Assembly: GCA_045863395.1 (NCBI GenBank)
Contig: BTVJ01000026.1
Location: 11,593-75,592 of the forward strand
Direction of reading: 5' to 3'
Length of the DNA stretch: 64,000 nucleotides
Source of the DNA: Myxococcales bacterium
GTDB taxonomy: Bacteria > Myxococcota_A > UBA9042 > JABWCM01 > BTVJ01
Within the stretch, counting starts at the first letter, position 1; each line of letters opens with the position of its first letter. The translations under genes were made by a program, and so were the position numbers. Shown here one piece after another: positions 32,075-61,470 of the stretch. The notes beneath the pieces were generated by a model. That model had not been told where the DNA came from and made no database searches. It was given only the letters and a program-made list of their open reading frames with translations.

Positions 32075-32193
32075 GGGGGCGACCGGGGGGCCCGGACACG
32101 TCGGGGTGGGAGACGGGGCGGACACTCCGGGCCAGGCGCATGTGCCATGGGTTGGGCAGGTGTCTCACGCCGGGAGAGGACAGCATCTGCGGC

Positions 32194-43315: not shown

Positions 43316-43843
43316 GTGGGACGCCTCCTCCTCGCACTCGGCCTCGTGTGTTGTCAGGAGGCGCCCGATCCGGCGGGGTGTCGCAGCGACGGTACCCTGG
43401 GCGCGTGCTGCGATGTGGCGCCGTGTCTGGCCCCCCTTGTGTGCCGGCCGGTGGGTGACCGCGAAGCCTGCACCGTCGCTTGCGACGCGGAGAGCGGGGC
43501 GGGCTGCCCGGGCGGTAGCGTGTGCGTCGCCCAAGCGGAGGGGGCGGCCTGTGTCCCCGCTGGGGGTGTCGTCGGCCAGGGCTGCTCGTTCACGGACGAC
43601 TGCCGGCCGGGTCTGATCTGTGAGAACCGCTTCCCCGGAGGCTACTGCACCGCGCCCTGCGAGAAGGGGACGCCGTGCCCGTCCGGAGTGGGGGACGCTC
43701 GCTGCGTGCGCCTCTCGGGCGACTTCGGGGCCTTCTGCCTGGCGCCGTGCACCACGAGTGCGGACTGTGCGCCCGGCGCGGAGTGCACGGCCGTCGGGGG
43801 CTCCGGCGTCTCCGTGTGCTTTCCGAACTTCGAGGACGGCTGA
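43316..43843 (+). CDS. Cys-rich protein, probably secreted; start uncertain
   Basis: GTG 43316; short hydrophobic N-terminus (GRLLLALGLVCC), about 30 Cys in 175 aa with CxxxC-type spacing; stop overlaps the ATG of the next gene. Confidence 0.4.
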   Translation: MGRLLLALGLVCCQEAPDPAGCRSDGTLGACCDVAPCLAPLVCRPVGDREACTVACDAESGAGCPGGSVCVAQAEGAACVPAGGVVGQGCSFTDDCRPGLICENRFPGGYCTAPCEKGTPCPSGVGDARCVRLSGDFGAFCLAPCTTSADCAPGAECTAVGGSGVSVCFPNFEDG

Positions 43844-44469
43844 TGGACGGACAGAAGGACCAAGGCGCGGCGAGGACCCGCAAGCTGTTCGCGCTGGGCG
43901 TGTTCATGGTGCTCGTCGTGTTTGCGCTGTGGCGCATCCGCGCGTCCCTGGAGGAGCGCGGAGTCGACTCCAAGCTGCGGGCCCTGGCACCCCAGGTCGG
44001 CGCGGATCTGGTGCTCACGGACTTCGAGCCCGCGAAGCATGATCGCGCTCTGGAGCCTGCTCCCTGGGTCGAGGGTGGGCCGGTGCGGCTCTCGGACCAC
44101 GCGGGGAAGGTGCTCTTCCTCAACTTCTGGGCCTCCTACTGCGAGCCGTGCAAGCGGGAGCTGCCGTCCATGGCGCGCCTCGCCAAGGAGCTGGCCGGTG
44201 ACCGCTTCGTCATGGTGGCGGTGAGCTACGACGAGTCCTGGGACGCGGTGTCGAAGTTCCTCGAGCAGATCGGCGGTGTGCCCCAGAACATCGTGTTCGT
44301 GCGGGACCCCGCGGCGCAGGCGGACCCGCTTGGGACCCACTATGGCACCCAGAAGATCCCGGAGACCTACGTGATCCGGGACGGGCGCATCCTGTTTCGC
44401 TTCGTGAACGAGCGCAACTGGATCGACATGGCCATGGTCCGCTTCTTCCGCGCCCTGATCGATGGCTGA
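43843..44469 (+). CDS. TlpA-like thiol:disulfide oxidoreductase (thioredoxin fold, membrane-anchored)
   Basis: Start ATG 43843 (MDGQKD…); TM anchor LFALGVFMVLVVFALW; redox motif WASYCEPC. Confidence 0.8.
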   Translation: MDGQKDQGAARTRKLFALGVFMVLVVFALWRIRASLEERGVDSKLRALAPQVGADLVLTDFEPAKHDRALEPAPWVEGGPVRLSDHAGKVLFLNFWASYCEPCKRELPSMARLAKELAGDRFVMVAVSYDESWDAVSKFLEQIGGVPQNIVFVRDPAAQADPLGTHYGTQKIPETYVIRDGRILFRFVNERNWIDMAMVRFFRALIDG

Positions 44470-45367
44470 GTCTCCGCGGTGGCCGGTGCTTCTGGCCGGC
44501 GTCGTGTTTCTGGCGCTTGGCGGCGTCGCCGTCTGGGCGCTGTTCGACCGGCCACTGCCCGCCCCGGACTTCTCGACGACAGGGTGGCGGCCGGCGAGCG
44601 ATGAGGTCGCTGCGCAGGCTGCGGCGGACCGGGCGCTGCTCGCCCAGGGCGCCGAGGACCCGGAGCTGGATCGGGCCGTCGAGGAGTGGAACGTGGAGGA
44701 GCTGCGCACGGGGGGGCGCGGCATCGACGAGGGGATTCGCCGGGCCCAGACGCGCGTCGAGGAGGCGGCCTTGAGGGCGCTGTCCCGGGTGGGGCGGGAC
44801 GGCTACCGGGCGCTCGGGCTGGCGCACCGGGAGCGCTTTCTCGCTGCGATGGACGCGTACCTGGCGGCGGTGCGCGCGTCGGGGGAGCCGCTCACCGGCT
44901 GGGATGTCAGACACCCAGATCTCGCAGAGACTGGTGCGATGCGTCGCCTGCTCGGGACCTTCCTGCTCGACGCCCGTCGGACCGGCGTCGTCCGGGAGTC
45001 GGGCGAGGTCACCGAGGACGCGGCGACGGTCGTGCCGCTCCTGTTCATGATGCGGTGGGGGCTCTTCGTGGCGCAGGCCATGCCGGCCGAGGAGCTGCTG
45101 AGCACGTTCGAGCGCAAGACCTTGCTTGCGTGGAAGGCCTGGGCCAACCCGACGCTGAACATCAGCCGGCGCAGGGAGGTGCTCGCCCGCCTCGCCGCCA
45201 TGGACGCGCGCGCGCCGGTCCACCGCGTCCTTGCGCTGCACTACATCCGGGCGCAGGACTGGCCGTCCGCGGCGCGGGAGACGGTGCTCGCCATCCTGGA
45301 CGCCCCCGAGGACCGGACCTTGGCGGCCAACCTGGCGTGGCTCAATGAGCGACTGGAGGGGCGCTGA
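44462..45367 (+). CDS. Hypothetical membrane-anchored protein
   Basis: ATG 44462 overlaps the TlpA-like gene end; N-terminal TM (WPVLLAGVVFLALGGVAVWALF); no family recognised. Confidence 0.5.
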   Translation: MAESPRWPVLLAGVVFLALGGVAVWALFDRPLPAPDFSTTGWRPASDEVAAQAAADRALLAQGAEDPELDRAVEEWNVEELRTGGRGIDEGIRRAQTRVEEAALRALSRVGRDGYRALGLAHRERFLAAMDAYLAAVRASGEPLTGWDVRHPDLAETGAMRRLLGTFLLDARRTGVVRESGEVTEDAATVVPLLFMMRWGLFVAQAMPAEELLSTFERKTLLAWKAWANPTLNISRRREVLARLAAMDARAPVHRVLALHYIRAQDWPSAARETVLAILDAPEDRTLAANLAWLNERLEGR

Positions 45368-45454: not shown

Positions 45455-45488
45455 GAGTATACCTGACCCCTAGAACGACCCCTAGAAC
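45455..45488 (+). repeat. GAGTAT-N3-TGACCCC motif followed by a 12-bp direct repeat x2 (GACCCCTAGAAC); the second copy contains the OMP gene stop codon
   Basis: agctGAGTATaccTGACCCCtagaacGACCCCTAGAACttcac; compare the related element at 55501-55603. Confidence 0.85.
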
Positions 45489-47059
45489 TTCACGCTCGCG
45501 AGCAGGCTCACTCCGAGACGGCTCGGATCCACGAACACGCGGGTGCCGATGCCGTTCTCGTCCTTGCGGATCTGGGCGCGGTCCGGGTCGTAGGTGTAGT
45601 CGACCTGGACCAGCGCCGCGAAGGTGCTCTCGTAGGTCCAGCGCAGGCCGCCGAGCGCGCTGATGATCGGCAGCGCGTCCTCTCCCTCCGGCAGGATGTC
45701 CCAGTCGCCGGGCTCCGTGCCGCGCACCACGACCTTCTGGATGCCCTGGCTTACCTTGGAGTTGTTCTGGCCGGCGGGCATGACGCCCCGGTAGGTGGCG
45801 GGGAGCTGGACCCCGATGCCCACGTAGGGGGTCAGGCCCAGCTCCGTGAACAGGTGGTCGACGGCGATGGTGCCCGAGACCTCGGGGGTGACCTCCGCAG
45901 CCTCCGGGAGCGCCGAGTAGGGGAAGTAGCCGGGCACGTTCGCCGTGATCCAGGTCATGTCGCGGAAGCCGCCGTCCAGGTGGATGCGGGTCTCCTTGAC
46001 CTTGACGCCCACCGACGCGAAGCTCGCCATGGCCAGCTCGGTCTTGGTCGAGCCGGTGAAGTCGAAGTCGGCGAGGGTCTGGGTCTGGAAGCCGAACTCC
46101 GCGGCGATGCGGTAGCTGACGTCGCCATCGTAGGGCTCCGACTCCGTCAGGTCGAAGCGGACGGGGTCCTCGCGGAACAGGTTGAGGTCGAGCCGCCGCC
46201 CCACGGGCGCCCCTCGCGAGAAGGACAACATGGCGCTGGCCCCACCGGCGACAATCGGCTTGCCGAGGACCTCCGCCTTGTTGTTGGTGCCCTTCTCGAA
46301 GACCCCGCCGTTGGCCTCGAGCCACAGGCCGTCCACGCCCAGCTCCACGCCCGCCCCGAAGAGGCCGCCGTAGAAGGTGCGCTCGACGAAGAGGGTCTCG
46401 TTGCCCTCCGAGTTGGCGAGCTTCACCTCGACCGCGCTCTTGATCAGCGCGGTCTTGAGGCCCGCGAAGGCGTAGAAGCCGCCGATGTCCACGCCCACCC
46501 GCGCCGCCGGCGCCGACGTGGTGCGGAAGTTGCGGGGGAACACGTCCGTGCCGCCCCAGGACAGCTCGTAGTGGAAGCCCATGCGCAGGCGGTCCGCGTC
46601 GACGGGGAACAGCTCGATGAAGGCGCTGTCGCCGATGCCTCGCTTGACCTTCTGGCCCGAGAGCAGCTCGCCCGTGGACCCCTGGTGCCGGTCCGGGTCG
46701 CGGTTCCAGAGGAAGTTGAGGCGCATGTATGACGCGTCGTCTCGGATCGTGCCCTTGGCGATGTCGATCTTCAGGTTGATCGCGGCCTCCGGAAGGAAGG
46801 CCTCCGTCAGGTCCAGGGCTTTGTAGAGGCCGATGTGCATGAAGGTGTCGTAGCGGTCCGGCAGCAGACGGTCGATGCTCGGGTCCGGCGTGCCACCGAT
46901 GTAGATGTCCGGGCTCGACTTGCGGTCCTCGCCGGCTCCCCGCAGCACGTTGTCGTCGGAGAACGGGAAGCTGATCTTCGCGTCCAGGTACTCGCCCGCC
47001 ATCGCGGGGGTGGCCATCGCGCCGAGGAGCAGGGCCAGGGTCGTCACGCTACGCTTCAT
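45482..47059 (-). CDS. Outer-membrane beta-barrel protein, function unknown
   Basis: Start ATG 47059 with signal peptide MKRSVTTLALLLGAMATPAMAGE; alternating amphipathic strands; C-terminal …LLASVKF (terminal Phe typical of OMPs). Confidence 0.7.
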   Translation of the reverse strand: MKRSVTTLALLLGAMATPAMAGEYLDAKISFPFSDDNVLRGAGEDRKSSPDIYIGGTPDPSIDRLLPDRYDTFMHIGLYKALDLTEAFLPEAAINLKIDIAKGTIRDDASYMRLNFLWNRDPDRHQGSTGELLSGQKVKRGIGDSAFIELFPVDADRLRMGFHYELSWGGTDVFPRNFRTTSAPAARVGVDIGGFYAFAGLKTALIKSAVEVKLANSEGNETLFVERTFYGGLFGAGVELGVDGLWLEANGGVFEKGTNNKAEVLGKPIVAGGASAMLSFSRGAPVGRRLDLNLFREDPVRFDLTESEPYDGDVSYRIAAEFGFQTQTLADFDFTGSTKTELAMASFASVGVKVKETRIHLDGGFRDMTWITANVPGYFPYSALPEAAEVTPEVSGTIAVDHLFTELGLTPYVGIGVQLPATYRGVMPAGQNNSKVSQGIQKVVVRGTEPGDWDILPEGEDALPIISALGGLRWTYESTFAALVQVDYTYDPDRAQIRKDENGIGTRVFVDPSRLGVSLLASVKF

Positions 47060-48686
47060 CGGTGGTCCCGTCACAGTCGTCGTCCACGCCATTGCCCGGC
47101 TTCTCCGCCGCGCCGGGGTGGACGCCCGGGTTGTTGTCGTTGCAGTCGCCCTGGTCGCCGGTCACGCCGTCGCCGTCGTTGTCGAGGGTCGGGTCCAGCA
47201 CGACGTCGCCGTCGTAGCGTGGGTCCACCACCCAGAACTGGAGGTCGCACTTGGTCTCGTCGGAGCTCTCTCCGCACAGGTAGATGTGCCGCAGCGAGCC
47301 GGTCATCGAGGAGACGCGGCGCGGGGGGCACACGTACTGGAGGAAGCCCTGCTCGGTCGTCTCCTTGGTGCACACGCCGTTCTTGTCCGGCTGCCCCAGG
47401 TAGTCCATGGACAGCGGCAGGAACTTCTCGGCGAGGCCCGTGGAGCCGTAGATCTTCTTCTTTCCGCCGGTCACGCCCGACCACTGGGAGTACTCGAAGT
47501 AGCCCTCCAGGTCGGCGCAATAGGGGTCGTCCTGGCACTCGCCCCGGCAGGTGTTCTCGTCGCCCTTGTCGATGAGGCCGTTGTTGTTGCGGTCGCAGGC
47601 GATGAACCGGGTCGCGACCTCCACGTCGCTGAACCGCACCAGGTTGGACTCCAGGGCCTCCAGATAGCGGCTGTTGGCGTACACGTTGGTCAGGTACTCG
47701 ACCTGGTTCGCCACCAGCTCGCTCTTCAGGTCGGCCGTGACGGCAATCGGGGCTGGAGGCTCCGCGTCGACGTCGATGCCCGGGGTCTTCGGGTTGCAGG
47801 TGTCGCTTCCCTCCCAGAGGTCGTCGTAGCTCGGGAAGGTGAGCTGCGTCATGCCCACGTGCTCGTCCACGGCTCCCGAGACCTGGCAGATGATGTCGCC
47901 GTACTCGATGAAGCGGGGCTTGGAGTAGGTGAACACGAACAGGCCGTTGAAGTAGCGGTCCTGTGCCTGATCGTCCAGGTCCACCACGTAGAAGCCGTTG
48001 GCCACCACGTTCACCACGACGAGGCGCCCCGCGTCCACGACGACCTGCTGGCCCTCCAGCGGGGAGGTGTGCAGCTTGCTCGTGAGCTGGATGTCGCGGA
48101 TGCGCGGGTTCTGGAACCACAGGGTCTCGGTCGTCCCGGTGGCGAACGTCGCCTTGGCCTCCTGGTCGTCGTCCACCGACAGGCAGCCCGGGTCTGCGAG
48201 GTCCACGAGGCCGTTTCCGTCGTTGTCCAGCCCGTCGTTGCACTGGCCGTACTTCGCCGCCTTGGGGAAGAAGCCGTCCTGCTCGATCCAGACGTGGGAC
48301 TCGCCGATGGCGCGGTTCACGAAGATCTCCAGGCCCTTGGCCTTGCCGCCCTTCACGAGGTGCCAGGACGTGGACGGCGCCACCCGCCCCGGGGTGATCC
48401 GCGCCCGCACCATGCCAGTGAACGGGAAGTGCTTGCCGTCGCGCCCCATGGCCGCCACGTCGACCACGACCCTCACGTGGCACTCGCCGTCGACACAGAC
48501 CTCGCCGTCCTCGCAGTCCGGGTCGCCGCTGCAGGGCTTGCCGCTGACGAACGGGAGGCGGTCCTTGGCGGTGCCGGCGGTGCCGGGAGTCAGGGACACC
48601 TGAAAGGACTGGAGCCCCTGGTCCAGGGCGTACTCGCTGGTGCACCCGGCGAGCAGCGCGAGCGCGACGGTGATGGAGCGTGCCAC
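47049..48686 (-). CDS. Lipoprotein with C-terminal DGDG/DDDC putative metal-binding motif
   Basis: GTG start 48686, 1 nt after the upstream gene stop; MARSITVALALLAGC (lipobox L-A-G-C); C-terminus DGDGVTGDQGDCNDNNPGVHPGAAEKPGNGVDDDCDGTTDEA. 3' end overlaps the OMP gene start by about 11 nt. Confidence 0.7.
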   Translation of the reverse strand: MARSITVALALLAGCTSEYALDQGLQSFQVSLTPGTAGTAKDRLPFVSGKPCSGDPDCEDGEVCVDGECHVRVVVDVAAMGRDGKHFPFTGMVRARITPGRVAPSTSWHLVKGGKAKGLEIFVNRAIGESHVWIEQDGFFPKAAKYGQCNDGLDNDGNGLVDLADPGCLSVDDDQEAKATFATGTTETLWFQNPRIRDIQLTSKLHTSPLEGQQVVVDAGRLVVVNVVANGFYVVDLDDQAQDRYFNGLFVFTYSKPRFIEYGDIICQVSGAVDEHVGMTQLTFPSYDDLWEGSDTCNPKTPGIDVDAEPPAPIAVTADLKSELVANQVEYLTNVYANSRYLEALESNLVRFSDVEVATRFIACDRNNNGLIDKGDENTCRGECQDDPYCADLEGYFEYSQWSGVTGGKKKIYGSTGLAEKFLPLSMDYLGQPDKNGVCTKETTEQGFLQYVCPPRRVSSMTGSLRHIYLCGESSDETKCDLQFWVVDPRYDGDVVLDPTLDNDGDGVTGDQGDCNDNNPGVHPGAAEKPGNGVDDDCDGTTDEA

Positions 48687-48687
48687 G

Positions 48688-51318
48688 TCAGCCCTCCGGC
48701 TCGTCCGGGTCGAGGTCGGGAGGCAGGTCCTCCAGGTTGGGCGGGAGGATGCGGCTGATCCGCGCGTCCGACTCGGCGCGCGGGCAGGGGAGCGTCGTGC
48801 ACTCGGTGTGCGCCTGCCACTCCACGTCCAGGTAGCACGCGGTCTCCCGGTCCGTCAGCGTGTAGCAGTCCCGGGGCATGCACCTCCCCTCGAAGCAGAG
48901 GCTGTAGGCGGGGCAGTCCTCGTTGCCGTCGCACAGCGCCCGGCAGCGCCCCTGCACGCACTGGGAGACCGGCGCGACGCAGAGGCCCCTTGCGCACACG
49001 TCGCCGCCTCCACAGTGCGCGTCCTCGCTGCACGGAGCGCAGCGCCCCTTGGCGCCCGGCTCGGCGCACCAGCCGTGGACGCACGCCTGCCCCGCGCCGC
49101 AGCCCTTCGTGGTGGTGCACTTGGTGCGCTTCGGCTCGCAGAAGCCGTTCCTGCACAGGGCGTCGAGCCCCTTGGCCACGCAGTCGGCGTTCTGCTTGCA
49201 GGTCGGCAGCGTGCCGAAGCAGGCGCGCACGCTGTCGGTACACTCGCCGTCCGCCTCACACGGGGTGGCGGTCGCCGGCAGACAGAACCCGCTGGAGTCG
49301 GTCTCGGCGAGCTTCACGCAGGCGTTCTGGCCCTTGGCGGCCTTGCTGGCGTGGCAGTCGCCGTCGCCCTGGCAGCGGTTGCGGCACCGGCCGAGCACAC
49401 AGGTGTAGGCGGGGGTCACGCAGACGCCCTGAAAACACTCCTGGCCGTCGCCGCACTCGAGGGAGTGGGTGCACGCCTTGCACTTGCCCCCGGCGCAGGC
49501 CGCGTCGAGGCGGTAGCAGTCCCCGTCGCCCTTGCACTGGCCGTCGTCCACCGCGCAGTGGTAGGGCGTCGTCAGCTCGCCGGGCGTCGTCTCGGCGATG
49601 TGCTCGCAGAACTGCCCCCGGTACTTGACCAGCGACTCCATGCAGGCGCCGTAGGTCGTACACCCCTCGAGCTGCACCTGGCCGTCCACGCGGCAGTCGT
49701 CGATGCAGCGCTGGGAGCGGATGATCTCCTCCTGCACCGCGTCGCGCAGCGGCACCCCCGAGTCCACCTGGGTGTTGTTGATCTTGAGCACCGTGAAGCC
49801 CGACCCGCCCCCGGCGATGTAGTTGTTGGTGGCCATCTCGTAGACGCCGTAGGGGTTGATGGGCGTCTCCTGGCACAGCGTCTTGTCCTTGATGTTGGAG
49901 TCACCGCAGTTGGTGATCACGACGTTCTCGGCGCGTGGCGGGCACTCGTCGCCGCAGTTGTCGCCCTCCTTCGGGAAGGTGCAGTTCATGGTGAAGCGCA
50001 GGCCCGCCACCTGGACCTGCGTGATGCAGCCGCGCCCCGCGCTGCGCCGCGTGGTGTAGTCCAGCAGGTCCTGGATGTCCTTGCCGCTCATGTACATGGT
50101 CGTGATCGTGTTCTCGAAGGGGAACACGTTGAAGAGGTCGTCCATGGTGATGGGGCCGGGGAAGATGTCGGTGCGGATTCCGAGCGTGTTCGTCAGCCCG
50201 AAGTCGGCCCAGGCGTGCTTGCGGATGGCCTCGGCCACGAAGTTGCCGAGGGGGGCGTCTCCGCCGTCGAAGCCGAAGCGGCGGATGTGGCGGTCCGCGA
50301 AGCCGTAGACGCTGGTCAGGTCGAAGATCTGGTTCATCTTCAGCCGGTACGGCTCCAGGAGGTCGAGCATGACCGGATCCTCGGGCACCGAGCTGTCGAT
50401 GGGGAAGATGGCGTAGTCGTGGTTGACCACCTCGCCGTCCCGGACGACGACGTCCAGGCGCGCGACGAACTTGGCGAAGGCGCCCGGGTGGGTCAGGATC
50501 ACGCTGCGGCCGGCCTTGTCCTTGATGACCTTCGGCGGGTTGAGGACGATGTGCAGGTGTCCGCCGAGGATGATGTCGAGGCCCTCGGTGTGCTGGATGA
50601 TCTCCTCGTCCTCGCCGAGGCCCGCGTGGCTGACGGCGACGATCAGATCCACCTGGGGGCGGAGCACGTTGATCCAGTCCTGCACGGTCTGGACGATGTC
50701 CAGCGGGACGATCTTGAGGCTGTTGCCGACTTCGGTCACCGACGAGATGGACGAAAAGTTGGCGATGCCGATGATCGCGATCTTCAGGCCGTCCTTGTTG
50801 ACGATCTCGACCGGGCGCACCAGGTCGTTCAGGGGGTTCCCCTTGATGAACAAGTAGTTGGCGGCGATCACCGGGTACGTGGCCCACGCCTTGAGCTGCT
50901 TCGCGTAGTTCGTGAGCCCCTCGTCGAACTCGTGGTTGCCGATGACCACGGCGTCCGGTTGGAGCTGGCTCATGACCCGCTGCTCCACCTCGCCCTTGAA
51001 GGCATTGAAGATCGGTGCGCCCTGGAAACAGTCGCCGCTGTCGACGAGGACGACGCGGCCCCCCCGCGCGCGCTCCCGCTTGATGACGTGCGCCATGCGC
51101 GCCGCCCCGCCGAAGGGCTCGTTGTCCTGGAGCAGGCCCATGCCCTCGTCACCAGCGCCGACCTGAGCGCGGTAGGGAATCAGGCGAGAGTGGATGTCGG
51201 AGGTGTGCAGGAAGGTGACGCGGATATCCTGGCCCGCGAGGGTCGGGTTCTCGTGTCGCTCCGTACAGGCCGCGAGAAGGGTTGTGATGGCTATAACCAG
51301 GCGAAACCATTGAGTCAT
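48688..51318 (-). CDS. Bifunctional metallophosphatase/5'-nucleotidase-like lipoprotein with long C-terminal Cys-rich domain
   Basis: GAGGGA RBS before ATG 51318; MTQWFRLVIAITTLLAAC (lipobox); metallophosphatase motifs FLHTSDIHSRL, VDSGDCFQGAP, GNHEFD, SHAGLGEDEE, GGHLH; 5'-nucleotidase C-domain; then about 350 aa with more than 50 Cys. Confidence 0.85.
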   Translation of the reverse strand: MTQWFRLVIAITTLLAACTERHENPTLAGQDIRVTFLHTSDIHSRLIPYRAQVGAGDEGMGLLQDNEPFGGAARMAHVIKRERARGGRVVLVDSGDCFQGAPIFNAFKGEVEQRVMSQLQPDAVVIGNHEFDEGLTNYAKQLKAWATYPVIAANYLFIKGNPLNDLVRPVEIVNKDGLKIAIIGIANFSSISSVTEVGNSLKIVPLDIVQTVQDWINVLRPQVDLIVAVSHAGLGEDEEIIQHTEGLDIILGGHLHIVLNPPKVIKDKAGRSVILTHPGAFAKFVARLDVVVRDGEVVNHDYAIFPIDSSVPEDPVMLDLLEPYRLKMNQIFDLTSVYGFADRHIRRFGFDGGDAPLGNFVAEAIRKHAWADFGLTNTLGIRTDIFPGPITMDDLFNVFPFENTITTMYMSGKDIQDLLDYTTRRSAGRGCITQVQVAGLRFTMNCTFPKEGDNCGDECPPRAENVVITNCGDSNIKDKTLCQETPINPYGVYEMATNNYIAGGGSGFTVLKINNTQVDSGVPLRDAVQEEIIRSQRCIDDCRVDGQVQLEGCTTYGACMESLVKYRGQFCEHIAETTPGELTTPYHCAVDDGQCKGDGDCYRLDAACAGGKCKACTHSLECGDGQECFQGVCVTPAYTCVLGRCRNRCQGDGDCHASKAAKGQNACVKLAETDSSGFCLPATATPCEADGECTDSVRACFGTLPTCKQNADCVAKGLDALCRNGFCEPKRTKCTTTKGCGAGQACVHGWCAEPGAKGRCAPCSEDAHCGGGDVCARGLCVAPVSQCVQGRCRALCDGNEDCPAYSLCFEGRCMPRDCYTLTDRETACYLDVEWQAHTECTTLPCPRAESDARISRILPPNLEDLPPDLDPDEPEG

Positions 51319-51541
51319 CGCGCACCGTCCCTCGTTGGCCCGCCGGCCCGGCGCAACAGGTATCACACGCCCACCCCCCGATCAAGCCGTGGCGCCCAAG
51401 GGGGTGAACGTAACCCGCGCGCAGATCGCGGGATGTGGGGCCGGGCGACGTGGGTTGAACCGGCGTTCGCGCTCTGGAATACTGTCGCGCGGTCCCGCGC
51501 GGGGACCTGCCGCCCACGCCCCAACTCTCCTCGGAGGCCTC

Positions 51542-52123
51542 ATGCTCCCCCGCAGAGCCATACTCTTGATGCTGCTGCTGCTTGCAGCGCCCGCGCGCGC
51601 CACCGTCGTCCTCGAGGTAGGCCTCGACGACATGAGCCGCACCTCGGACGTGATCTTCCACGGCGTCGTGACCCGGACCGACGTCGTTGCCGTCGGCGGG
51701 GACGCCACGCGACTCGTAACCGACGTCACCTTCTCGCTGACCGAGGTGCTCAAGGGGCGGGCGCTCGTGCCGGAGCCGAGCTTCACGCTCCGGCTGATCG
51801 GGGGGCAACGGGGCGGGCTCGAGCTGCGCATCCCTGGGATGCCGCGCTTCAGTGAAGGGGACGAGGTCGTCATGTTCCTGGAGCGCACCGAGGGAGGCTT
51901 CGCCATCACGGGTCTGTCCCAGGGGCGCTTCGAGGTGCGCGTCGATGCTGAGACCGGCGAGCGGGTGGTCGACCGGTCGCTCGGAAGCGTGGGGGTGGCG
52001 CGGTTCGGTGCGGGCGGCGAGTTCGAGATGACAGAGGCGCCGGCCAGCCTGGTGCGCTACCCCCTTGCGAACCTGCTCGACGAGGTGCGCCACTGGATCG
52101 CCGAGGACGGGGTGGCCCGATGA
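51542..52123 (+). CDS. Secreted hypothetical protein
   Basis: GGAGG RBS before ATG 51542; signal peptide MLPRRAILLMLLLLAAPARA; stop overlaps the next ATG. Confidence 0.5.
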   Translation: MLPRRAILLMLLLLAAPARATVVLEVGLDDMSRTSDVIFHGVVTRTDVVAVGGDATRLVTDVTFSLTEVLKGRALVPEPSFTLRLIGGQRGGLELRIPGMPRFSEGDEVVMFLERTEGGFAITGLSQGRFEVRVDAETGERVVDRSLGSVGVARFGAGGEFEMTEAPASLVRYPLANLLDEVRHWIAEDGVAR

Positions 52124-54222
52124 AGCGCGCCCTCCTGATCGTGTCGGGCCTGCTGCTCTGGGCGCCTGCTGCCTCCGCGTCCAGCATCGCCCTGTCGGAC
52201 TACTACAACAAGCTCGTCCGGTGGACCATCTCGACGGTCCCGTACCACCTGAACCCCGCCGGCTCCGACGACATCGGGGACGGCAGCGACATCCAGGCCA
52301 TCAAGGAGTCGTTCAACGACTGGATCACGCTCCCGTGCTCGTCGCTGAAGATCAACCACCTGGGGGCCGCCGGCAACACGAGCCTGCTGACGGGTGCTCA
52401 GGCCAACGGCAAGAACGAGCTCCACTTCGTGGAGAACTCGGCCTGGACCTATGGCAAGTACGTGCTGGGCGTGACCGCGCCGCTCTACGACTACAACGGC
52501 AAGATCTGGGAGTCGGACATCGCGTTCAACGGCTACCTCCAGTCCTGGTCCACGACGGGCGGGTGGGGCAAGACCGACGTGAAGGCCATCGCGATCCACG
52601 AGATCGGGCACTTCTTCGGGATCCAGCACAACCTGGGCGGCTACTCCTCCTCGTCGCCGCCGACCATGGCGCCGTCGTGGGACGGGACGCTGAAGCAGCG
52701 GACCCTGGAGCAGGACGACAAGAACTCGTTCTGCTTCCTCTACAACAACGCCAACTACACCTGCGGCACCGACGCGGACTGTCCCTACGTGGTGGGCCAC
52801 AAGTCCAACGGGCAGGAGTACTACACAGGGAAGTACGTGTGCAGCGGGGGCAAGTGCCAGCTCGGGTCGGGCTCGGGGACGGCCGGCGGCACCAAGGGGC
52901 TCGGCGAGAAGTGCAGCACGAACCAGGACTGCAAGTCACCCTACTTCTGTCAGCCCGTGTGGGGGCAGGGGAGCATGTGCTCGCAGGTGTGCAACCCGAG
53001 CTCCAGCACGAGCTGCCCGGGCGGCTTCGTGTGCGTCCCCTACGAGGGTCAGAGCTCGGGGGCGTGCATCCCCGGCGGGCCGACCACCAAGAGCGACGGG
53101 GCCGCATGTGAGGCGTCGAGCGAGTGCAAGTCGGGTTACTGCGGGACCAACCCCGTGGACGGCTCGTTGGAGTGCCGCCAGACCTGCACCGTCGGCGAGG
53201 CGGGGCACTGCACCAAGAGCCAGGTGTGCGTACCGTCCCACGGCAGCGCGTCCTCGGCGGGAGCCTGCTGGGGTGTGGATGACGTGGGGGCGGTCAACCG
53301 CGCTGACACGGATGGCTGCGACTTCGACTGGCAGTGCAAGAGCGGGCGATGCGTGCTCGACCAGGCGAGCGGGGAGCAGTTCTGCCGCGCGGCGTGCAGC
53401 CCGGCGCACCCGAGCTGCGCCGCCGGGACGTGGTGCGTCGAGCTGTCGCCGCAGGTGGGCGCCTGCATCCCTGGTTCTCCGCCTCCGCCCCCCGAGAAGC
53501 TCGAGGACGGGGCGATCTGCGCTACGAACGAGGAGTGCAAGAGCGGCGTCTGCGCCAAGCCCGCCGGGGGCACACGCACCGTGTGCGTCACGCCTTGCGC
53601 GCTCGCGGACGACGCGTGCCCCGCAGGTCAGGTGTGCGTCGGCTCTGGCGACGCGGTCTGGGGCGCTTGCCTGCCGGCGGCGCTCCCCGCGGGCGCGTCC
53701 TGTGGGGGACCTCAGGACTGCAGCAGCGGGCTGTGTCTCGATTCGGGCAGCGGGTCCGTCTGCGTCCAGGCCTGCTCGGAAGGGGGTGTCTGCCCCTGCG
53801 GGACGAGCTGCCAGTTCGCGGTAGGTGGCGACGTCTGCGTGCCCGACGCCACGGCGCCGACCTGCGCGGCGGCGGGCGTGCAGTGCGCGAGCAACCTGGA
53901 GTGCGGGAGCGGGCGGTGCCAGGGCGGGGAGTGCAGCGGCGAGGCTGGTGGCTCGGGTGGCTCGGGTGGGTCGGGTGGGTCGGATGCTGCGAGTGGCCCT
54001 GGCGGCGGCTCCGGCAGTGGCTCCGGTGATGCCGCGGGCGGAGCAGGCGGCGACGCAGCGGGCGGCGGAGTCGAGGCGCCAGGAGGCGTCGGCGGGGAGG
54101 CAGACCTCAGCGGCAGCGCAGCCGGCGGCGGCTGCGGGGCGACCAGCGGCCCGGGCGGCGGCCTGCTGGCGATGCTCGCGTTGCTCGGTTGGCTGACCGT
54201 TCGCCGGCGCGTGGCCGCCTGA
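52120..54222 (+). CDS. Secreted matrixin-like zinc metalloprotease (M10 family) with Cys-rich repeat region and MYXO-CTERM-like sorting tail
   Basis: Signal peptide MKRALLIVSGLLLWAPAASA; zinc motif HEIGHFFGIQH (HExxHxxGxxH); repeated Cys-rich units (CxSGxC…); Gly/Ser-rich spacer; C-terminus GGGCGATSGPGGGLLAMLALLGWLTVRRRVAA. Confidence 0.85.
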   Translation: MKRALLIVSGLLLWAPAASASSIALSDYYNKLVRWTISTVPYHLNPAGSDDIGDGSDIQAIKESFNDWITLPCSSLKINHLGAAGNTSLLTGAQANGKNELHFVENSAWTYGKYVLGVTAPLYDYNGKIWESDIAFNGYLQSWSTTGGWGKTDVKAIAIHEIGHFFGIQHNLGGYSSSSPPTMAPSWDGTLKQRTLEQDDKNSFCFLYNNANYTCGTDADCPYVVGHKSNGQEYYTGKYVCSGGKCQLGSGSGTAGGTKGLGEKCSTNQDCKSPYFCQPVWGQGSMCSQVCNPSSSTSCPGGFVCVPYEGQSSGACIPGGPTTKSDGAACEASSECKSGYCGTNPVDGSLECRQTCTVGEAGHCTKSQVCVPSHGSASSAGACWGVDDVGAVNRADTDGCDFDWQCKSGRCVLDQASGEQFCRAACSPAHPSCAAGTWCVELSPQVGACIPGSPPPPPEKLEDGAICATNEECKSGVCAKPAGGTRTVCVTPCALADDACPAGQVCVGSGDAVWGACLPAALPAGASCGGPQDCSSGLCLDSGSGSVCVQACSEGGVCPCGTSCQFAVGGDVCVPDATAPTCAAAGVQCASNLECGSGRCQGGECSGEAGGSGGSGGSGGSDAASGPGGGSGSGSGDAAGGAGGDAAGGGVEAPGGVGGEADLSGSAAGGGCGATSGPGGGLLAMLALLGWLTVRRRVAA

Positions 54223-56757: not shown

Positions 56758-56772
56758 CTCCGGGAGGTGGCG

Positions 56773-57453
56773 ATGGAGGCCGACGCAGAGGGGAGGGCAA
56801 AGGCGCTGGACGCGCTGCGTAACCGGGTGCTGCACGTCGTCGGCCACGCGCTCCGCTCCCCGGTGTGCACGGCCCGGGGACTCGCCCACGCCATCGATGG
56901 CGCATCGGATGCCCAGGTCCGCGCCGTCATCGCGCCCTCCCTCGTCCGCGCCCTCGACGGCTTGAGCGCGCTGGTCGACGACCTGCTGGTCGCCAGCGAG
57001 GTGACGACCGCGCTGCCCACGGGTGGATTGGTCCCGCGGAGCGTTGCTGCCACGGCCCGGGAGGCGTGGTCCGCCCGTCGGCTTGGTGGGGAGCTCCAGA
57101 TCGAGGGGGAGTGCGACGCCTGCGCCCACGATGGGGCGCTTGAGCGCATCCTGGGTCACCTCCTGACGAACGCGGCCTTCTACTGCGGGCGGCCGGTCCG
57201 CGTCGTCGCCTGTGCAGACGATGGGGTGGCTCGGGTCGTGGTCGAGGCCCCCGGGCCAGAGCCGACGGACAGCGAGCTCGAGCACGCCTTCGAGCCCTTC
57301 TATCGAAGCGAGATGGCCGTGATGTCCTCGCCTGGGCTCGGGCTTGGGCTCACGGTCGCCCGCGCGCTGGCGGAGCACGCCGGCGGCGAGCTGCGCCTGG
57401 AGCGGGTTCCGGGGTACGGAGCCCGCGCCACCCTGACCCTGCCACACTCGTGA
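56773..57453 (+). CDS. Histidine kinase (HisKA + HATPase_c, no obvious sensor domain)
   Basis: H-box LHVVGHALRSPV; G-box SPGLGLGLTVARAL; GGAGG before ATG 56773 (GTG 56767 also possible). Confidence 0.75.
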   Translation: MEADAEGRAKALDALRNRVLHVVGHALRSPVCTARGLAHAIDGASDAQVRAVIAPSLVRALDGLSALVDDLLVASEVTTALPTGGLVPRSVAATAREAWSARRLGGELQIEGECDACAHDGALERILGHLLTNAAFYCGRPVRVVACADDGVARVVVEAPGPEPTDSELEHAFEPFYRSEMAVMSSPGLGLGLTVARALAEHAGGELRLERVPGYGARATLTLPHS

Positions 57454-57460
57454 GGTGCCC

Positions 57461-57841
57461 ATGGGTGACGCACTCCGCGTCGTGATCGCCGACGACGACA
57501 GCGACCTCCTCCTCCTGCTGGGTCTACAGCTCAGCCGGGTCGACGGGATCGAGGTCGTCGGAGAGGCACGCGACGGGCAAGCCGTCCTTCAGCTCTGCGA
57601 CGAGGCGCACCCCGACGTCCTCGTCCTCGACCTGCTGATGCCGGTGATGTCCGGCGTGGAGGCCCTCCCAAAGCTCCGCGAGCGGTTCCCGGCCCTGGCC
57701 ATCGTGGCCTGCTCAGCGGTCGCCGGTCAGATGGTCCGCGAGCTGACGGACAGGCTCGGCGTTCCCCTCGTGCTGAAGTCCGGGCGCATCGAGCCCATCC
57801 TTGACGCCATCCGGGCTGCGGTGGACTCGAAGGCCGCCTGA
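57461..57841 (+). CDS. Single-domain response regulator (CheY-like receiver)
   Basis: LRVVIADDDSDL…DVLVLDLLMPVMSG…; immediately downstream of the kinase gene. Confidence 0.8.
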   Translation: MGDALRVVIADDDSDLLLLLGLQLSRVDGIEVVGEARDGQAVLQLCDEAHPDVLVLDLLMPVMSGVEALPKLRERFPALAIVACSAVAGQMVRELTDRLGVPLVLKSGRIEPILDAIRAAVDSKAA

Positions 57842-57987
57842 TCACGGCACCGCCCGCATCCCCGCCCCGCGACGGTTACATCCCTGGCGCTCGCGGTGAC
57901 GTTTGCGCTACAGTGGCGCTCTGCCGAACCGTTGTGTCGGGCGCCTTGGGAGCGGGGAGGCGGTGTGTCTCGTGACGAGGGAGCGTG

Positions 57988-59538
57988 ATGGTCGGGCTGC
58001 GAGCGAGGGTGCTGGTCGTCGACGACGAGGCGGAGGTGCGCGATATGCTGGCCCGCTCGTTGGCTTCCGACGGGTTCGAGGTAGAGACGGCGGATGGTGG
58101 GCGCGCCGCCCTGGAGGCCGCCCGAAGGCGCGCGTTCGATCTGGTAATCACTGATTTGATGATGCCGGGGATGGATGGCGCGGAGACCGCGGAGGCCCTC
58201 AGGGCGCACGATCCGTCCATTGAGGTCATCGTCGGGACCGGCTATGCGACGGTAGAGACCGCCGTCAGGTGTATGAAGAGCGGCGCCTACGACTATCTGG
58301 AGAAGCCCTACGATCTGCAGCGCCTCGCTCTCACCATGCACCGGGCCCTCGAGAAGCGCCAGCTCCAGGGTGCGGTGGCGCTCTTCGGGGCCAGCCGGGC
58401 GCTCCTGTCGGCGAGGAGCCAGATCGAGGTGAAGTCGCTCGCCGTGGAGCTCGGCAGCCGGGTCCTGCGGGCAGACAAGGCTTGCCTCCTCCTCGACGGT
58501 GCGGCCCTGTCCGATCCGCTGCCACCTGGCGCAGCCGAGGTCCTTGGCCGCGAGCTTCGAGCCGCCGCCGGCGCGTTCATCCTGCCATCCGCCGCCCGCC
58601 CGCTGCCCATCGAGTTCGCCGAGTGCGGCTTCGTCGGTGCCCTGGTCCTTCCGCTGCAGTCTGGCGAGCGATCCCTTGGGGCGCTGGTCGTGCTGCGCTC
58701 CGGCCCTCAGGGCTCATTCACCCGAGCGGAGCTGCAGCAGGGCGCCGTCCTGGCCGCGCAGGTGGCCCTCTCCCTGGAGAACGCGCGCCTCAACGAGGAG
58801 GTGGCCCAGCGAGTGGACGAGCTGGTGTCGACCCGCGAGCAGCTCGTGCGCGCAGAGAAGGTGAGCCTCGCCGCGCGTCTGGCGGGTCACGTCGCCCACG
58901 AGATCAACAACCCACTCTCGGTCGTGCTGGCGAACCTGGGCGTGCTGCAAGAGAGCCTCGGCGACCGCGGCCTGGACGGCGGCGACATCGGAGAGATCCT
59001 CGCCGACATCCAGGACGCCGTGAAGCGCGTCGCCGGCCTGGTGACCGGCTTTCGGCGCCTCACTCAGACCGCAGACCGCTCCGCACCGCGGCCCGTGCCC
59101 GTCGAACCGCTCCTCCGACGCTGTGTGGAGTCCGTCTCGGCAGAGTCCGGGCCGTCCGTGGTGCTGGACGTGGTCGGCGAGCCGACCGTCTCAACCGCAG
59201 AGGATGACGCGCGCACCGCGGTCGCCAGCGTGCTGTCCTACCTGTCGCGTTCGCACGACGGGAGGCCGCCCAGCCGCAGCATCACGGTCTTTGCGAGGCA
59301 GCCACCCAAGGCCGGCCACGTCCTCATCGACGTCACTGCGCCGGGGCTCCACCTGTCGCCCGAGGAGCGGCTGGAGGTCCTCGACCCGAAGGTCCACGGC
59401 GCCGACGGGGGGACCATGCGCATGGATCTGACCATGTCGCTGGCGTGGCAGCTCATCAGGCGCAACGCGGGCGAGCTGACCCTCGTCGACTCGCCAGCCG
59501 GCGGCACGTCGCTGCGCATCGCGCTGCCGGTGGGCTGA
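57988..59538 (+). CDS. Hybrid sensor kinase: receiver + GAF-like + HisKA + HATPase_c
   Basis: Receiver (RVLVVDDEAEVRD…DLVITDLMMPGMDG), H-box HVAHEINNPLSVV, C-terminal ATPase; GAGGGA RBS. Confidence 0.85.
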   Translation: MVGLRARVLVVDDEAEVRDMLARSLASDGFEVETADGGRAALEAARRRAFDLVITDLMMPGMDGAETAEALRAHDPSIEVIVGTGYATVETAVRCMKSGAYDYLEKPYDLQRLALTMHRALEKRQLQGAVALFGASRALLSARSQIEVKSLAVELGSRVLRADKACLLLDGAALSDPLPPGAAEVLGRELRAAAGAFILPSAARPLPIEFAECGFVGALVLPLQSGERSLGALVVLRSGPQGSFTRAELQQGAVLAAQVALSLENARLNEEVAQRVDELVSTREQLVRAEKVSLAARLAGHVAHEINNPLSVVLANLGVLQESLGDRGLDGGDIGEILADIQDAVKRVAGLVTGFRRLTQTADRSAPRPVPVEPLLRRCVESVSAESGPSVVLDVVGEPTVSTAEDDARTAVASVLSYLSRSHDGRPPSRSITVFARQPPKAGHVLIDVTAPGLHLSPEERLEVLDPKVHGADGGTMRMDLTMSLAWQLIRRNAGELTLVDSPAGGTSLRIALPVG

Positions 59539-59541
59539 CCC

Positions 59542-61470
59542 TCATCCGATACGGGCGCTGACGGCGGACCGCAGCACCTCCGGGACATAGGGCTTGTCCA
59601 CGAAGAGGTTCTTGACCTCGCTCCGAAACGTCAGGGCCCGCGGGGTGAAGGCGCCCCCGGTCAGGAAGATCATGCGGTCCGTGGCCTCCGGGTGGGTGCG
59701 GGCGAGCTCCGCGTGGAGGTCCATCCCGGTCATCTCCGGCATCATCAGGTCGCAGAGGATCACGTCGAAACGCTCGCCTCCCCGGAGCCGCTCGAGGGCC
59801 TCGGCCGCGGTGCTGACGGCGACGACCTCGTGGTGGCGTGACAGGGTGCGGGACAGCGCCCGGATCACCATGGCGTCGTCGTCCACCACGAGCACGCGCC
59901 CCCGCCGCGGCTGCTCCACGACGGTCGGGACGGGCGCCGGGTCGGGGGTGAGCGGAGCGTGGGCCGGGCGCTCGCTGGCGGCCGGCAGCAGCACGCGGAA
60001 GGTGCTCCCGTGCCCCGGGCGGCTGTCCACCAGGATCTCCCCCCCGAAGGAGCTGACGATGCGGTGGCAGATGGAGAGCCCCAGGCCGGTCCCCACCCCT
60101 GACGCCTTCGTGGTGAAGAAGGGCGTGAACAGGCGCTTGATGACCGCCGGCGACATGCCCGCGCCGGTGTCGCGGACGGAGATCTGCACCCGTCCGTCTT
60201 GCCACGGCCCGGTGGCCACCTCGATGAGGTGGTCGTCGAAGCGCCCCTCCGGGATTGCCTGGGCGGCGTTGATCAGCAGGTTGATCAGCACCTGCCCGAG
60301 CCGCGCCTCGGTCGCCAGCGCGGAAGGCGCATCCGCGTGGGTGACCATGAGGCGCCCCCGATGACGCAGCTCGCTGGCGCACATGCGCAGGGCCCCCTCG
60401 ACGACGCGGCGGAGGTCCACGGGCCTTGGCTCTGGCTCGTCGTCGCCCCGAGACAGGAGCTTCAGGTCGCGGACGATGTGTCGCACCCGATCTGCGGCCA
60501 GGCGTGCGTCGAGGAGCTGCTCCCGGAGCCTCGACACAGGCACGCTGCCGGGGCCATCTGCTTCAAGGGTCGCCAGATCGTCGAGGCTCAACGACAGGTT
60601 CCCGATCAGCCCGCTCAACGGGTTGTTGATCTCGTGCGCGACGCCCGCCGCCAGCGTCCCCATGGAGGCCATGCGGTCCGAGACGATGACCTGGGTCTGG
60701 AGCTGGCGATGCTCCGTGACGTCCGTGACCATGACCAGGGCGCCTGAGCCCTGCTCGTCGTCGACGACCAGGGCCGCGGAGAGGGTGGCCCAGAACTCTG
60801 TTCCATCGCGCCGCACGAACCGGCACTCGTGCAGAGAGTGGGCGCCGTCGCCGCACATGGCCACACAGTGTCGGAGGACGCGCCTCGACTCGTCGTCGGT
60901 GAAGTCGTCCATCAGGGCGCCGAGGAGGTCGGCTGGAGACTCCAGGCCCAGCATCTCGGCCATTCGCCGATTGGCAAACGTGGTGCGGAGGTCATGGCCC
61001 ACGACCCAGATCCCCTCCTGGGTCACCTCCACGATGGTGCGATACTTGAGCTCGCTGCGACGCAGCGCGGCCTCGGCCTCCGATTTCTCACGGCGTGCGC
61101 TTGCCTCCCGCAGCTCCCGCTGGATCGCCGGGATGAGGCGGGTCAGCCGGCCCTTGACGAAGAAGTCGTGGGCCCCCGCCCGGAGGGCCTCGACGGCAGT
61201 CTCCTCCCCGATGGTCCCCGAGATGATGAGGAACGGGATGTGCAGGCCCGTGCTGTTGAGCACCCGCAGCGCCGCGAGGCCGCTGAAGTCCGGCAGGCAG
61301 TAGTCGGAGAGGATGAGGTCCCACGGTTCGGCCAGGGCCGCGCGCATCTCCAGCTCTGTCTGCACGGTGCGATGGACGATCTGGTACGGACCCCGCCGAA
61401 GCTCCAGGAGGAGCAGCTCCTCGTCGTCGGCGGAGTCCTCGACGATCAACACGCGGAGTGGAGTCTTCAT
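59542..61470 (-). CDS. Hybrid sensor histidine kinase: REC-PAS-HisKA-HATPase_c-REC
   Basis: N-terminal receiver (RVLIVEDSADDEE…LILSDYCLPDFSG), PAS-like segment, H-box GVAHEINNPLSGL, G-box GTGLGLSICHRIV, C-terminal receiver (RVLVVDDDAMV…VILCDLMMPEMTG). Confidence 0.9.
   Translation of the reverse strand: MKTPLRVLIVEDSADDEELLLLELRRGPYQIVHRTVQTELEMRAALAEPWDLILSDYCLPDFSGLAALRVLNSTGLHIPFLIISGTIGEETAVEALRAGAHDFFVKGRLTRLIPAIQRELREASARREKSEAEAALRRSELKYRTIVEVTQEGIWVVGHDLRTTFANRRMAEMLGLESPADLLGALMDDFTDDESRRVLRHCVAMCGDGAHSLHECRFVRRDGTEFWATLSAALVVDDEQGSGALVMVTDVTEHRQLQTQVIVSDRMASMGTLAAGVAHEINNPLSGLIGNLSLSLDDLATLEADGPGSVPVSRLREQLLDARLAADRVRHIVRDLKLLSRGDDEPEPRPVDLRRVVEGALRMCASELRHRGRLMVTHADAPSALATEARLGQVLINLLINAAQAIPEGRFDDHLIEVATGPWQDGRVQISVRDTGAGMSPAVIKRLFTPFFTTKASGVGTGLGLSICHRIVSSFGGEILVDSRPGHGSTFRVLLPAASERPAHAPLTPDPAPVPTVVEQPRRGRVLVVDDDAMVIRALSRTLSRHHEVVAVSTAAEALERLRGGERFDVILCDLMMPEMTGMDLHAELARTHPEATDRMIFLTGGAFTPRALTFRSEVKNLFVDKPYVPEVLRSAVSARIG

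Follow-up and report, generated by a model that had tools for sequence, protein, structure and literature searches.

A window of 64,000 nucleotides (nt) from a Myxococcales bacterium (assembly GCA_045863395.1, contig BTVJ01000026.1, positions 11,593 to 75,592 of the forward strand) contains a cassette of three genes on the minus strand, here termed A, B, and C; A and B encode lipoproteins, A one of the 5'-nucleotidase family, and C encodes an outer-membrane beta-barrel. With slightly better than even confidence, the three genes are read here as co-expressed parts of a single module in the outer membrane, which would obtain phosphate and nucleosides from external nucleotides and perhaps also from short oligonucleotides. 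In this module C, a substrate channel of the 18-strand porin class, would provide passage across the outer membrane, and B, an outer-membrane lipoprotein stabilized by Ca2+ and disulfides, would use its OB fold to capture the nucleotide or oligonucleotide beside the channel. A would be a lipid-anchored dimetal phosphoesterase of the 5'-nucleotidase family that removes phosphate and yields the nucleoside, with a disulfide-rich insert protruding from its C-terminal domain. We infer the substrate, the uptake of the product, the outer-membrane face of A and B, and the contacts among B, C (and A). A literature search found no published description of the A-B-C cassette. It is best called a new arrangement of a known concept: extracytoplasmic nucleotide scavenging is familiar, while a lipoprotein-lipoprotein-porin cassette that draws on two undescribed families is new.

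The three genes are packed tightly on one strand. Gene A (48688..51318, stop codon included) encodes 876 amino acids (aa) from an ATG start; the list of open reading frames (ORFs) reaches back to a GTG at 51366, and gene calls on identical public contigs give the 876-aa form. Gene B (47049..48686) encodes 545 aa from a GTG start, and gene C (45482..47059) encodes 525 aa from its MKRS start, with which the public gene call agrees. All three products are called on six public contigs of the same organism. Base-by-base reading places the A stop codon TGA at 48690-48688 (GAGGGC TGA), followed by a single C at 48687 and the GTG of B at 48686, with a Shine-Dalgarno-like GGAGGG, a likely ribosome-binding site, 8 nt upstream of that GTG. 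At the B/C junction, C begins with its ATG at 47059, within B, and the TAG of B ends at 47049, which gives an overlap of 11 nt. The minus-strand three-gene layout given in the preliminary description, with its coordinates, strand, 1-nt spacing, and 11-nt overlap, is therefore correct throughout.

The junction between A and B is tight almost everywhere. Across 26 orthologous loci, the median distance from the A stop codon to the lipobox Cys of B is about 52 nt, which leaves space for a signal peptide only. The spacing between B and C is more variable across orthologous loci. In the window, the divergent intergenic region upstream of A (51319..51541) is the sole non-coding space for a cassette promoter. 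A scan of this region returned no sigma-70-type promoter, no Rfam family or riboswitch was found in the leader upstream of A, and no minus-strand terminator was found downstream of C, where folding is no better than that of shuffled sequence. Location on one strand, junctions of +1 and -11 nt that leave no room for internal promoters, and conserved linkage support the view that A-B-C is a conserved, translationally packed unit, its presumed operon status resting on geometry and conservation.

Homologues of the three genes occur together across a broad range of Myxococcota. A word-index search returned 30 homologues of the barrel and, for B, about 60 that are full-length, and all named ones come from uncultured Myxococcales/Myxococcota genomes. 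When 185,579 species genomes were scanned with the B alignment, 27 loci were recovered, most of them labeled Myxococcota, Myxococcales, or Deltaproteobacteria, with four generic proteobacterial labels and one short fragment labeled Acidimicrobiia. A profile search with B reaches a wider family of 262 matches below 1e-30, part of which are unrelated repeat proteins that match the acidic repeat only, and a search seeded with the divergent B copy of locus L009 returns more than 570 proteins, including AKJ09_09261 of the cultured Labilithrix luteola. Among the 32 loci whose contig ends allow the presence of the triad to be judged, tblastn and hmmsearch on the fetched loci found A, B, and C together in 30. 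The triad loci that bear names are all Myxococcota, again including L. luteola, and all four of the distant B-like proteins that were looked up lie within a triad. In L. luteola DSM 27648, the triad surrounds AKJ09_09261 at about 9.744-9.751 Mb of CP012333.

Lack of conservation had been named in the preliminary description as one outcome that would speak against the proposed grouping. Barrel identity across triad loci ranges from 82% to 30%, and over this span (roughly 80% to 30%) the triad is kept with flanking genes that are unrelated between lineages, and even with a permuted gene order. This constitutes strong comparative evidence that the triad is a functional unit with a B-C core. It is scarcely credible that the three genes are merely adjacent and functionally unlinked, or that one of the ORFs is not a gene. 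The lack of a recognizable promoter or terminator on either side of the cassette would fit such a reading, but the homologues of each gene number from dozens to hundreds and are under purifying selection, and the G+C content at third codon positions is 0.95-0.96 in all three ORFs, which is gene-like and typical for genes of this genome (the window has 67-72% G+C across most of its length). Persistence of the triad through changed flanks and gene order effectively refutes mere adjacency.

A few loci depart from the common arrangement. In L040 (7001-12569), the order is permuted to B-C-A, and the cassette directly follows rpoN-hpf-ptsN-hprK-rapZ-ptsH-ptsI; the hpf-to-ptsI part of this context also precedes the triad in L. 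luteola (L038). In L041 (4189-4833), two small ORFs of 112 and 96 aa lie between A and B. The fragment binned as Acidimicrobiia (L037, 1-1664) is a 1.7-kb contig in which B-C fragments are broken over several frames, and it probably comes from a myxobacterium and is either mis-binned or rich in errors, and is not taken as a sign of transfer to another phylum.

Protein A has the two-domain architecture of the 5'-nucleotidase/UshA superfamily. A signal peptide with lipobox (MTQWFRLVIAITTLLAAC, 51265..51318; LLAAC, Cys18) is followed by a metallophosphoesterase catalytic domain (residues 35-257, 50548..51216; Metallophos PF00149, E=2e-14) and by a 5'-nucleotidase C-terminal substrate-binding domain (residues 352-512, 49783..50265; 5_nucleotid_C PF02872, E=8e-32). 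The best match in the Protein Data Bank (PDB) is the Thermus 5'-nucleotidase 2z1a (3e-42), followed by 3ivd and by the snake-venom and human CD73 enzymes, and the alignment to 2z1a and CD73 is full-length. Conservation was assessed in 27 orthologues, which comprise 26 proteins extracted from related loci and the window protein. Cys18 is invariant in all 27, as are the dimetal motifs DIH, GD, GNHEFD, SHAG, and GGHLH, which align with those of 2z1a. The substrate-clamp residues GIR, FPF, and Y500 align with those of solved 5'-nucleotidases and are likewise invariant. With its catalytic motifs intact and invariant, the phosphoesterase looks active. The C-terminal domain also carries a family-specific four-Cys loop, with Cys431, Cys446, Cys471, and Cys482 invariant.

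A nevertheless falls outside the named equivalogs of its superfamily. Its scores lie far below the NCBIfam equivalog cut-offs for UshA (149 vs 600 bits), NadN (124 vs 436), SoxB (120 vs 550), CpdB (79 vs 486), and YfkN, which places it in a separate subfamily. An assignment to SoxB was rejected, both on its score and because no sox genes lie nearby. Moreover, the Asp that binds ribose in the GGDGF/Y motif of classical enzymes is replaced by Ser506 (GGSGF; codon 49801-49803) in 27 of 27 orthologues, including those of the distant Labilithrix-type clade, so that the substrate of A may differ from that of classical 5'-nucleotidases. Both features weigh against the reading of the cassette as a nucleotide-harvesting module.

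A Cys-rich block follows the substrate-binding domain of A (residues 538-845, 48784..49707) and was recognized by its Cys spacing and by a weak DUF7107 match. It holds 46 of the 54 Cys residues of the protein, arranged in about eight four-Cys modules, and these Cys are conserved in about 25 of the 27 orthologues. Behind it lie a terminal strand motif (SDARISRILPPNL) and an acidic Pro-rich tail (together 48691..48783); the motif residues D851 and R853 are invariant in all 27 sequences. Orthologues of L009 and L038 have a shorter block, that of L010 has almost none, and the orthologues with small inserts (L009, L010, L038-L042) terminate directly after DGRI/DNRV. When residues 538-845 are left out, the DARISRI of A falls without gaps on what we take to be the C-terminus of CD73 (EGRIKFS). 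A BLASTP alignment of A with this CD73 sequence covers the first 30 residues only, and the DARISRI/EGRIKFS pairing is read on as its ungapped continuation; phmmer alignments of the block-deleted construct of A and of the tail of the L010 orthologue stop short of the last nucleotidase strand.

The conserved terminal motif behind the block, the ends of the small-insert orthologues, and the CD73 correspondence together indicate that the Cys-rich block is probably an expandable insertion, placed after the final helix of the nucleotidase fold and before its final strand, and not a fused tail. A nucleotidase fused to a 350-aa Cys-rich domain had been described earlier; the Cys-rich region is real, but it measures 308 aa and looks like an insertion into the C-terminal domain. 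A disulfide-rich insertion that ranges from about 35 to 308 residues between lineages, in a conserved loop, is also a curiosity for protein engineering.

For protein B, a lipoprotein, no homologue of known function matches over the whole length. Its lipobox is LLAGC, and the lipobox Cys15 and 16 further Cys, 17 in total, are invariant in an alignment of 36 homologues. The AlphaFold2 (AF2) model is confident, with a predicted local distance difference test score (pLDDT) of 88.4, and a whole-chain Foldseek search returned no PDB match at E<=0.001. A profile comparison of B with the PDB returned solely a teneurin Cys-rich motif, and Pfam detects no family beyond a C-terminal MopE motif. No paralogue of B, or of C, was found within the window.

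Four regions can be distinguished in B, apart from this C-terminal motif. An N-terminal Ig-like beta-sandwich (residues ~25-135, 48282..48614) contains a four-Cys knot at residues 52-69 and resembles the Ig domains of GH2 enzymes and the domains of intimin and invasin. Next comes an acidic double-disulfide repeat with a Ca2+-binding-type loop (CNDGLDNDGNGLVDLADPGC, 48177..48245), which matches NCBIfam NF033662 (E=1.5e-6) and the profile of the teneurin Cys-rich segment. An OB-fold domain of the ExeM/NucH/YhcR type (residues ~183-290, 47817..48140) follows. The fourth region is a C-terminal alpha/beta domain (residues ~300-500, 47187..47789), delimited by AF2 secondary structure and invariant columns, with 8 Cys and an EF-hand-like loop (CDRNNNGLIDKGDENTC). 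B has a near-canonical EF-hand-type loop (DRNNNGLIDKGD), and weak EF-hand matches occur in three family members. The metal bound by B is likely to be Ca2+ and not copper. The C-terminal MopE-type motif (residues 514-544, 47055..47147; PF11617, E=2e-10) has low pLDDT and is present in only 8 of the 36 homologues, which marks it as an accessory, dispensable tail on sequence grounds. Of the earlier label "metal-motif lipoprotein", the lipoprotein part stands, and the metal part overrates this tail.

The OB fold links B to extracellular nucleases. Its structure resembles those of RPA, the anticodon-binding domains of AsnRS and AspRS, the N-terminal domains of MCM proteins, and Stn1/Ten1, as well as that of 3f1z, which is annotated as a "putative nucleic acid-binding lipoprotein". 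In the ExeM/NucH nuclease model, the N-terminal part is matched by residues 228-289 of B (E=1.3e-6) and also by distant B-like proteins, one of them at ExeM model positions 199-294. This part corresponds to the OB fold of Xds, which maps to N221-Q300 (PMC6746945), and to the YhcR-like region, which ExeM needs for its activity (PMC6085458). B and the extracellular nucleases ExeM, Xds, NucH, and YhcR are thus weakly homologous in their OB folds. No EEP or SNase catalytic domain is present in B, which makes B a relative of the binding module of these nucleases and not itself a nuclease. A hidden SNase or EEP nuclease activity in B was accordingly rejected on present evidence.

The substrate of the cassette could also be another phosphoester or a sugar nucleotide (UDP-sugars, CDP-alcohols, NAD, or FAD), or the cassette could handle polysaccharides, in which case oligosaccharide would be the ligand of the OB fold and the barrel would act like Wzi or AlgE. 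Enzymes of the UshA family hydrolyze UDP-sugars, CDP-alcohols, and NAD (PMC10454023, PMC8071527), the NadN and UshA models score alike on A, and the invariant change from Asp to Ser in the ribose-binding motif suggests altered specificity. B is acidic, its N-terminal domain is like the Ig-like domains of glycoside hydrolases, and it has a weak Foldseek match to a Bacteroides surface glycan-binding protein. Set against this, the OB region of B matches nuclease-type OB models specifically and repeatedly, and A keeps the base-stacking and phosphate-binding residues of nucleotidases. In addition, no glycosyltransferase, Wza/Wzc, or alginate-type genes lie beside the triad in any context examined. 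A substrate of this kind is therefore improbable.

Further observations weigh against nucleotide harvesting. B is very acidic, and its isoelectric point of 4.3 speaks against a non-specific affinity for polyanionic DNA. The ligands of OB folds also include sugars, metals, and proteins. Neither A, B, nor C contains an EEP or SNase nuclease domain, and none was found among the window genes scanned against Pfam, which are housekeeping, two-component, and envelope genes; degradation of polymers would thus need partners encoded elsewhere. The same set contains no pho-type or nucleoside-transport genes, and there is no riboswitch. Finally, two loci from uncultured Myxococcales genomes (L034 and L036) keep B-C without an adjacent A. 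In both of these loci, mnmE lies after C, and in L034 (3985-7050) a gene upstream of B encodes a 1021-aa lipoprotein with many CGxDGCGGxCGxC repeats and no Pfam domain.

The positions of A and B in the envelope can be estimated from their mature N-termini. In Myxococcus xanthus, Lys at +2 retains lipoproteins in the inner membrane, and two 5'-nucleotidase lipoproteins have been found in the outer-membrane proteome (PMC3222651). Neither A nor B has Lys at +2 or Ala at +7, and none of the 27 A orthologues has Lys at +2, which by the M. xanthus rules (PMC3222651) points to sorting of both proteins to the outer membrane. Location on the cell surface and location on the periplasmic face of the outer membrane are about equally likely. 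The mature N-terminus of A (51241-51264) follows the pattern C-A/T-E-Q/R-H-E/D-N-P and is unusually conserved where a variable tether would normally be expected; it could be a sorting signal, an export signal, or part of the fold.

Protein C starts with a signal peptide of 21 aa, contains no Cys, and ends in Phe. Its structural model (pLDDT 76.8, predicted template modeling score 0.77) shows about 20 long strands in a closed antiparallel barrel, and together with the signal peptide and the aromatic C-terminal residue this is the pattern of porin-type proteins. C is thus predicted to be an outer-membrane beta-barrel of about 18-20 strands. The parts named in the preliminary description, a lipoprotein of the 5'-nucleotidase type, another lipoprotein, and an outer-membrane barrel, are borne out by the domains, the lipoboxes, and the barrel model. 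In fold comparisons, C scores 17-18 with OpdQ, MOMP, ScrY, and chitoporin, 16.4 with Wzi, and 15.0 with AlgE. Lower values are obtained with FhaC (14.2), MtrB (13.8), TonB-dependent receptors (11-14), and BamA, TamA, and CdiB (11-13). Judged from the model, C is closest to substrate-specific 18-strand channels.

The family to which C belongs has no model in Pfam or NCBIfam at E<=0.01, and with 27 homologues examined nothing relevant appears at E<=1. The C profile finds no relative in the PDB, where its only return is a chance match to a nanobody (E=0.14). The most conserved stretches of C are non-strand segments, FPVDADRLRMGFHYELSWGGTDVFPRNFR and GDWDILPEGED, which suggest a specific constriction or docking surface and would make C a specific rather than a general channel. 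Compared with the solved 18-strand porins (OccD/OprD, LamB, ScrY, and chitoporin), C has only 6-10% identity, no Pfam or NCBIfam membership, and loops that are longer by about 190 residues and carry conserved motifs particular to the family, and its gene is coupled to two lipoprotein genes.

These loops also bear on a different role for the barrel. Instead of a nutrient channel, C could be a plug-and-barrel or a translocon for surface lipoproteins, dedicated to their insertion, export, or retention; B (and A) would then be displayed on the cell surface and the enzyme would act outside, by analogy with LptD-LptE, MtrB-MtrA/C, or Slam. Consistent with such a role, C has long, conserved non-barrel loops, and B and C are the most tightly conserved pair, persisting in the two loci that lack A. 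The conserved mature N-terminus of A (C-A-E-Q/R-H-E/D-N-P) could serve as the export signal. A and B also have disulfide-rich modules and Ca2+-type modules of kinds typical of extracellular proteins, and a secreted metzincin encoded next to the cassette has similar Cys-rich modules. The periplasm is oxidizing too, however, so that disulfides are no proof of surface exposure, and C lacks a periplasmic TPR or POTRA domain, has no DUF560 match, and is encoded in a cassette without CxxCH heme motifs. Presentation of lipoproteins by C is thus fairly unlikely.

It is distinctly unlikely that the cassette is a Myxococcota-specific, TonB-independent utilisome for oligonucleotides. In this version, B would act as a Ca2+-dependent lid on C, as SusD does on SusC, and would thread captured ends of single-stranded nucleic acid, or nucleotides, into the pore, and A, spaced by its disulfide-rich insert, would process them. 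If true, such a B-capped C would represent a new class among porin machines, one with a lipoprotein cap, made from two families of proteins without described relatives. A capped channel formed by B and C would also be a TonB-independent counterpart of the Sus-type machines of Bacteroidota.

Another possibility is that the cassette serves signaling or defense: during predation or cell-cell interaction, it would remove or convert extracellular ATP or AMP (to adenosine), or cyclic and linear dinucleotides, where they meet the cell surface. CD73, which is among the best PDB matches of A, is one of the surface enzymes of this superfamily that have a part in purinergic signaling. PilZ or GGDEF genes adjoin the triad in several contexts (L010, L039), but these neighbors are inconsistent across loci, and no sensor or regulator accompanies the triad consistently. 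A purely degradative role would also leave the dedicated porin and the OB-fold binding protein unexplained, and this reading is therefore quite improbable. Nucleotide scavenging or signaling had been offered together in the preliminary description; the former is strengthened by the ExeM/Xds/NucH/YhcR-type OB fold of B, while the latter has gained no specific support.

The harvesting of phosphate and nucleosides that is favored here has a close counterpart in the pathway by which Vibrio cholerae and Shewanella obtain phosphate from extracellular DNA (Xds/ExeM and Dns, porins, UshA/CpdB, and Pst with NupC). For V. cholerae, a route has been proposed in which the nucleotides that Xds and Dns release pass the outer membrane via porins, and UshA and CpdB then dephosphorylate them (PMC4714964). 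The cassette shares with this pathway the superfamily and the catalytic motifs of A, the coupling of outer-membrane passage to extracytoplasmic dephosphorylation, and, in B, the OB module of Xds/ExeM (PMC4714964, PMC6085458, PMC6746945). There, however, the genes are scattered, the enzymes soluble, and the porins general, while here a three-gene cassette encodes two lipid-anchored proteins and a dedicated barrel. A also falls under the UshA cut-off and has Ser for the ribose-binding Asp, and the cassette has no nuclease domain.

Similar combinations of parts occur in other bacteria. Haemophilus influenzae takes up NAD by means of the OmpP2 porin, the NadN nucleotidase, and the lipoprotein phosphatase e(P4), which turn the nucleotide into a transportable nucleoside. 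This route likewise joins a porin, an enzyme of the 5'-nucleotidase family, and an outer-membrane lipoprotein, and the NadN model matches A (124 bits). It differs in that its genes are not known to lie in one operon and that its lipoprotein is itself a phosphatase rather than an OB-fold protein, and A lies below the NadN cut-off of 436 bits. In Bacillus subtilis, the cell-wall-anchored nuclease YhcR reportedly unites OB folds with a domain of the 5'-nucleotidase type in one surface polypeptide, a finding attributed to Oussenko et al. in 2004. YhcR, considered here together with YfkN, resembles the cassette in placing OB folds of the YhcR type and a metallophosphoesterase/5'-nucleotidase module on the envelope, and it is Ca2+-dependent (PMC3222306, PMC4714964). 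Unlike the cassette, YhcR is one sortase-anchored polypeptide with an SNase domain in a monoderm, whereas the cassette distributes the OB fold and the nucleotidase over separate lipoproteins, lacks SNase, and adds a porin.

The SusCD utilisomes of Bacteroidota also combine an enzyme lipoprotein, a binding lipoprotein, and a barrel in one locus, and B has its weak Foldseek likeness to a surface glycan-binding protein. The cassette lacks a TonB-dependent 22-strand transporter with a plug and a SusD-fold lipoprotein, since B is not a TPR protein of the SusD type, and its surface location is putative. It also differs from Slam, a DUF560 barrel with TPR, and from MtrCAB, which has multiheme partners and a 26-strand barrel. 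A heme-based Mtr-like system was rejected because no CxxCH motif is present.

Myxobacteria live by digesting other microbes and detritus. To our knowledge, little has been described of how the breakdown products of nucleic acids pass the myxobacterial outer membrane. The cassette ties a recognizable enzyme to two families that lack a model in Pfam and NCBIfam and whose members are annotated only as "hypothetical protein" or "lipoprotein", and so offers an entry point to nutrient capture at the outer membrane. Its presence in hundreds of Myxococcota sequences, and in the cultured L. luteola, makes it open to experimental study.

Several neighboring genes in the window also encode envelope proteins. 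Divergent from A, a gene at 51542-52123 (+) encodes a 193-aa secreted protein of no known family, and the metzincin gene mentioned above follows at 52120-54222 (+). The metzincin has 700 aa, the motif HEIGHFFGIQH, a weak Peptidase_M10 match, and a long Cys-rich C-terminal region like the insert of A. A metzincin gene lies upstream of A in seven related loci (L008, L011, L013, L014, L017, L019, and L020), and the gene for the 193-aa protein in four (L007, L008, L011, and L019); their recurrence could reflect lineage synteny or a functional partnership.

Downstream of C, the opposite strand carries a 175-aa Cys-rich secreted ORF (43316-43843, +), a gene for a TlpA/ResA-like thioredoxin-fold protein (43675-44469, +), and a gene for a 301-aa protein of no known family (44462-45367, +). 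The latter two recur near the cassette in L007, where a DsbA-type gene is also close by. The TlpA/ResA-like and DsbA-type neighbors fit a lineage rich in disulfide-bonded envelope proteins. At 56767-63886, a two-component cluster encodes hybrid histidine kinases, a three-receiver protein, and a GAF-HisKA protein, and shows no conserved association with the cassette. The lipoprotein maturation genes lgt and lspA are adjacent (31166-32125 and 32194-33231, both on the minus strand), about 13-14 kb downstream of the cassette, and the lspA ORF is unusually long at 345 aa, with the Peptidase_A8 domain confined to residues 203-324.

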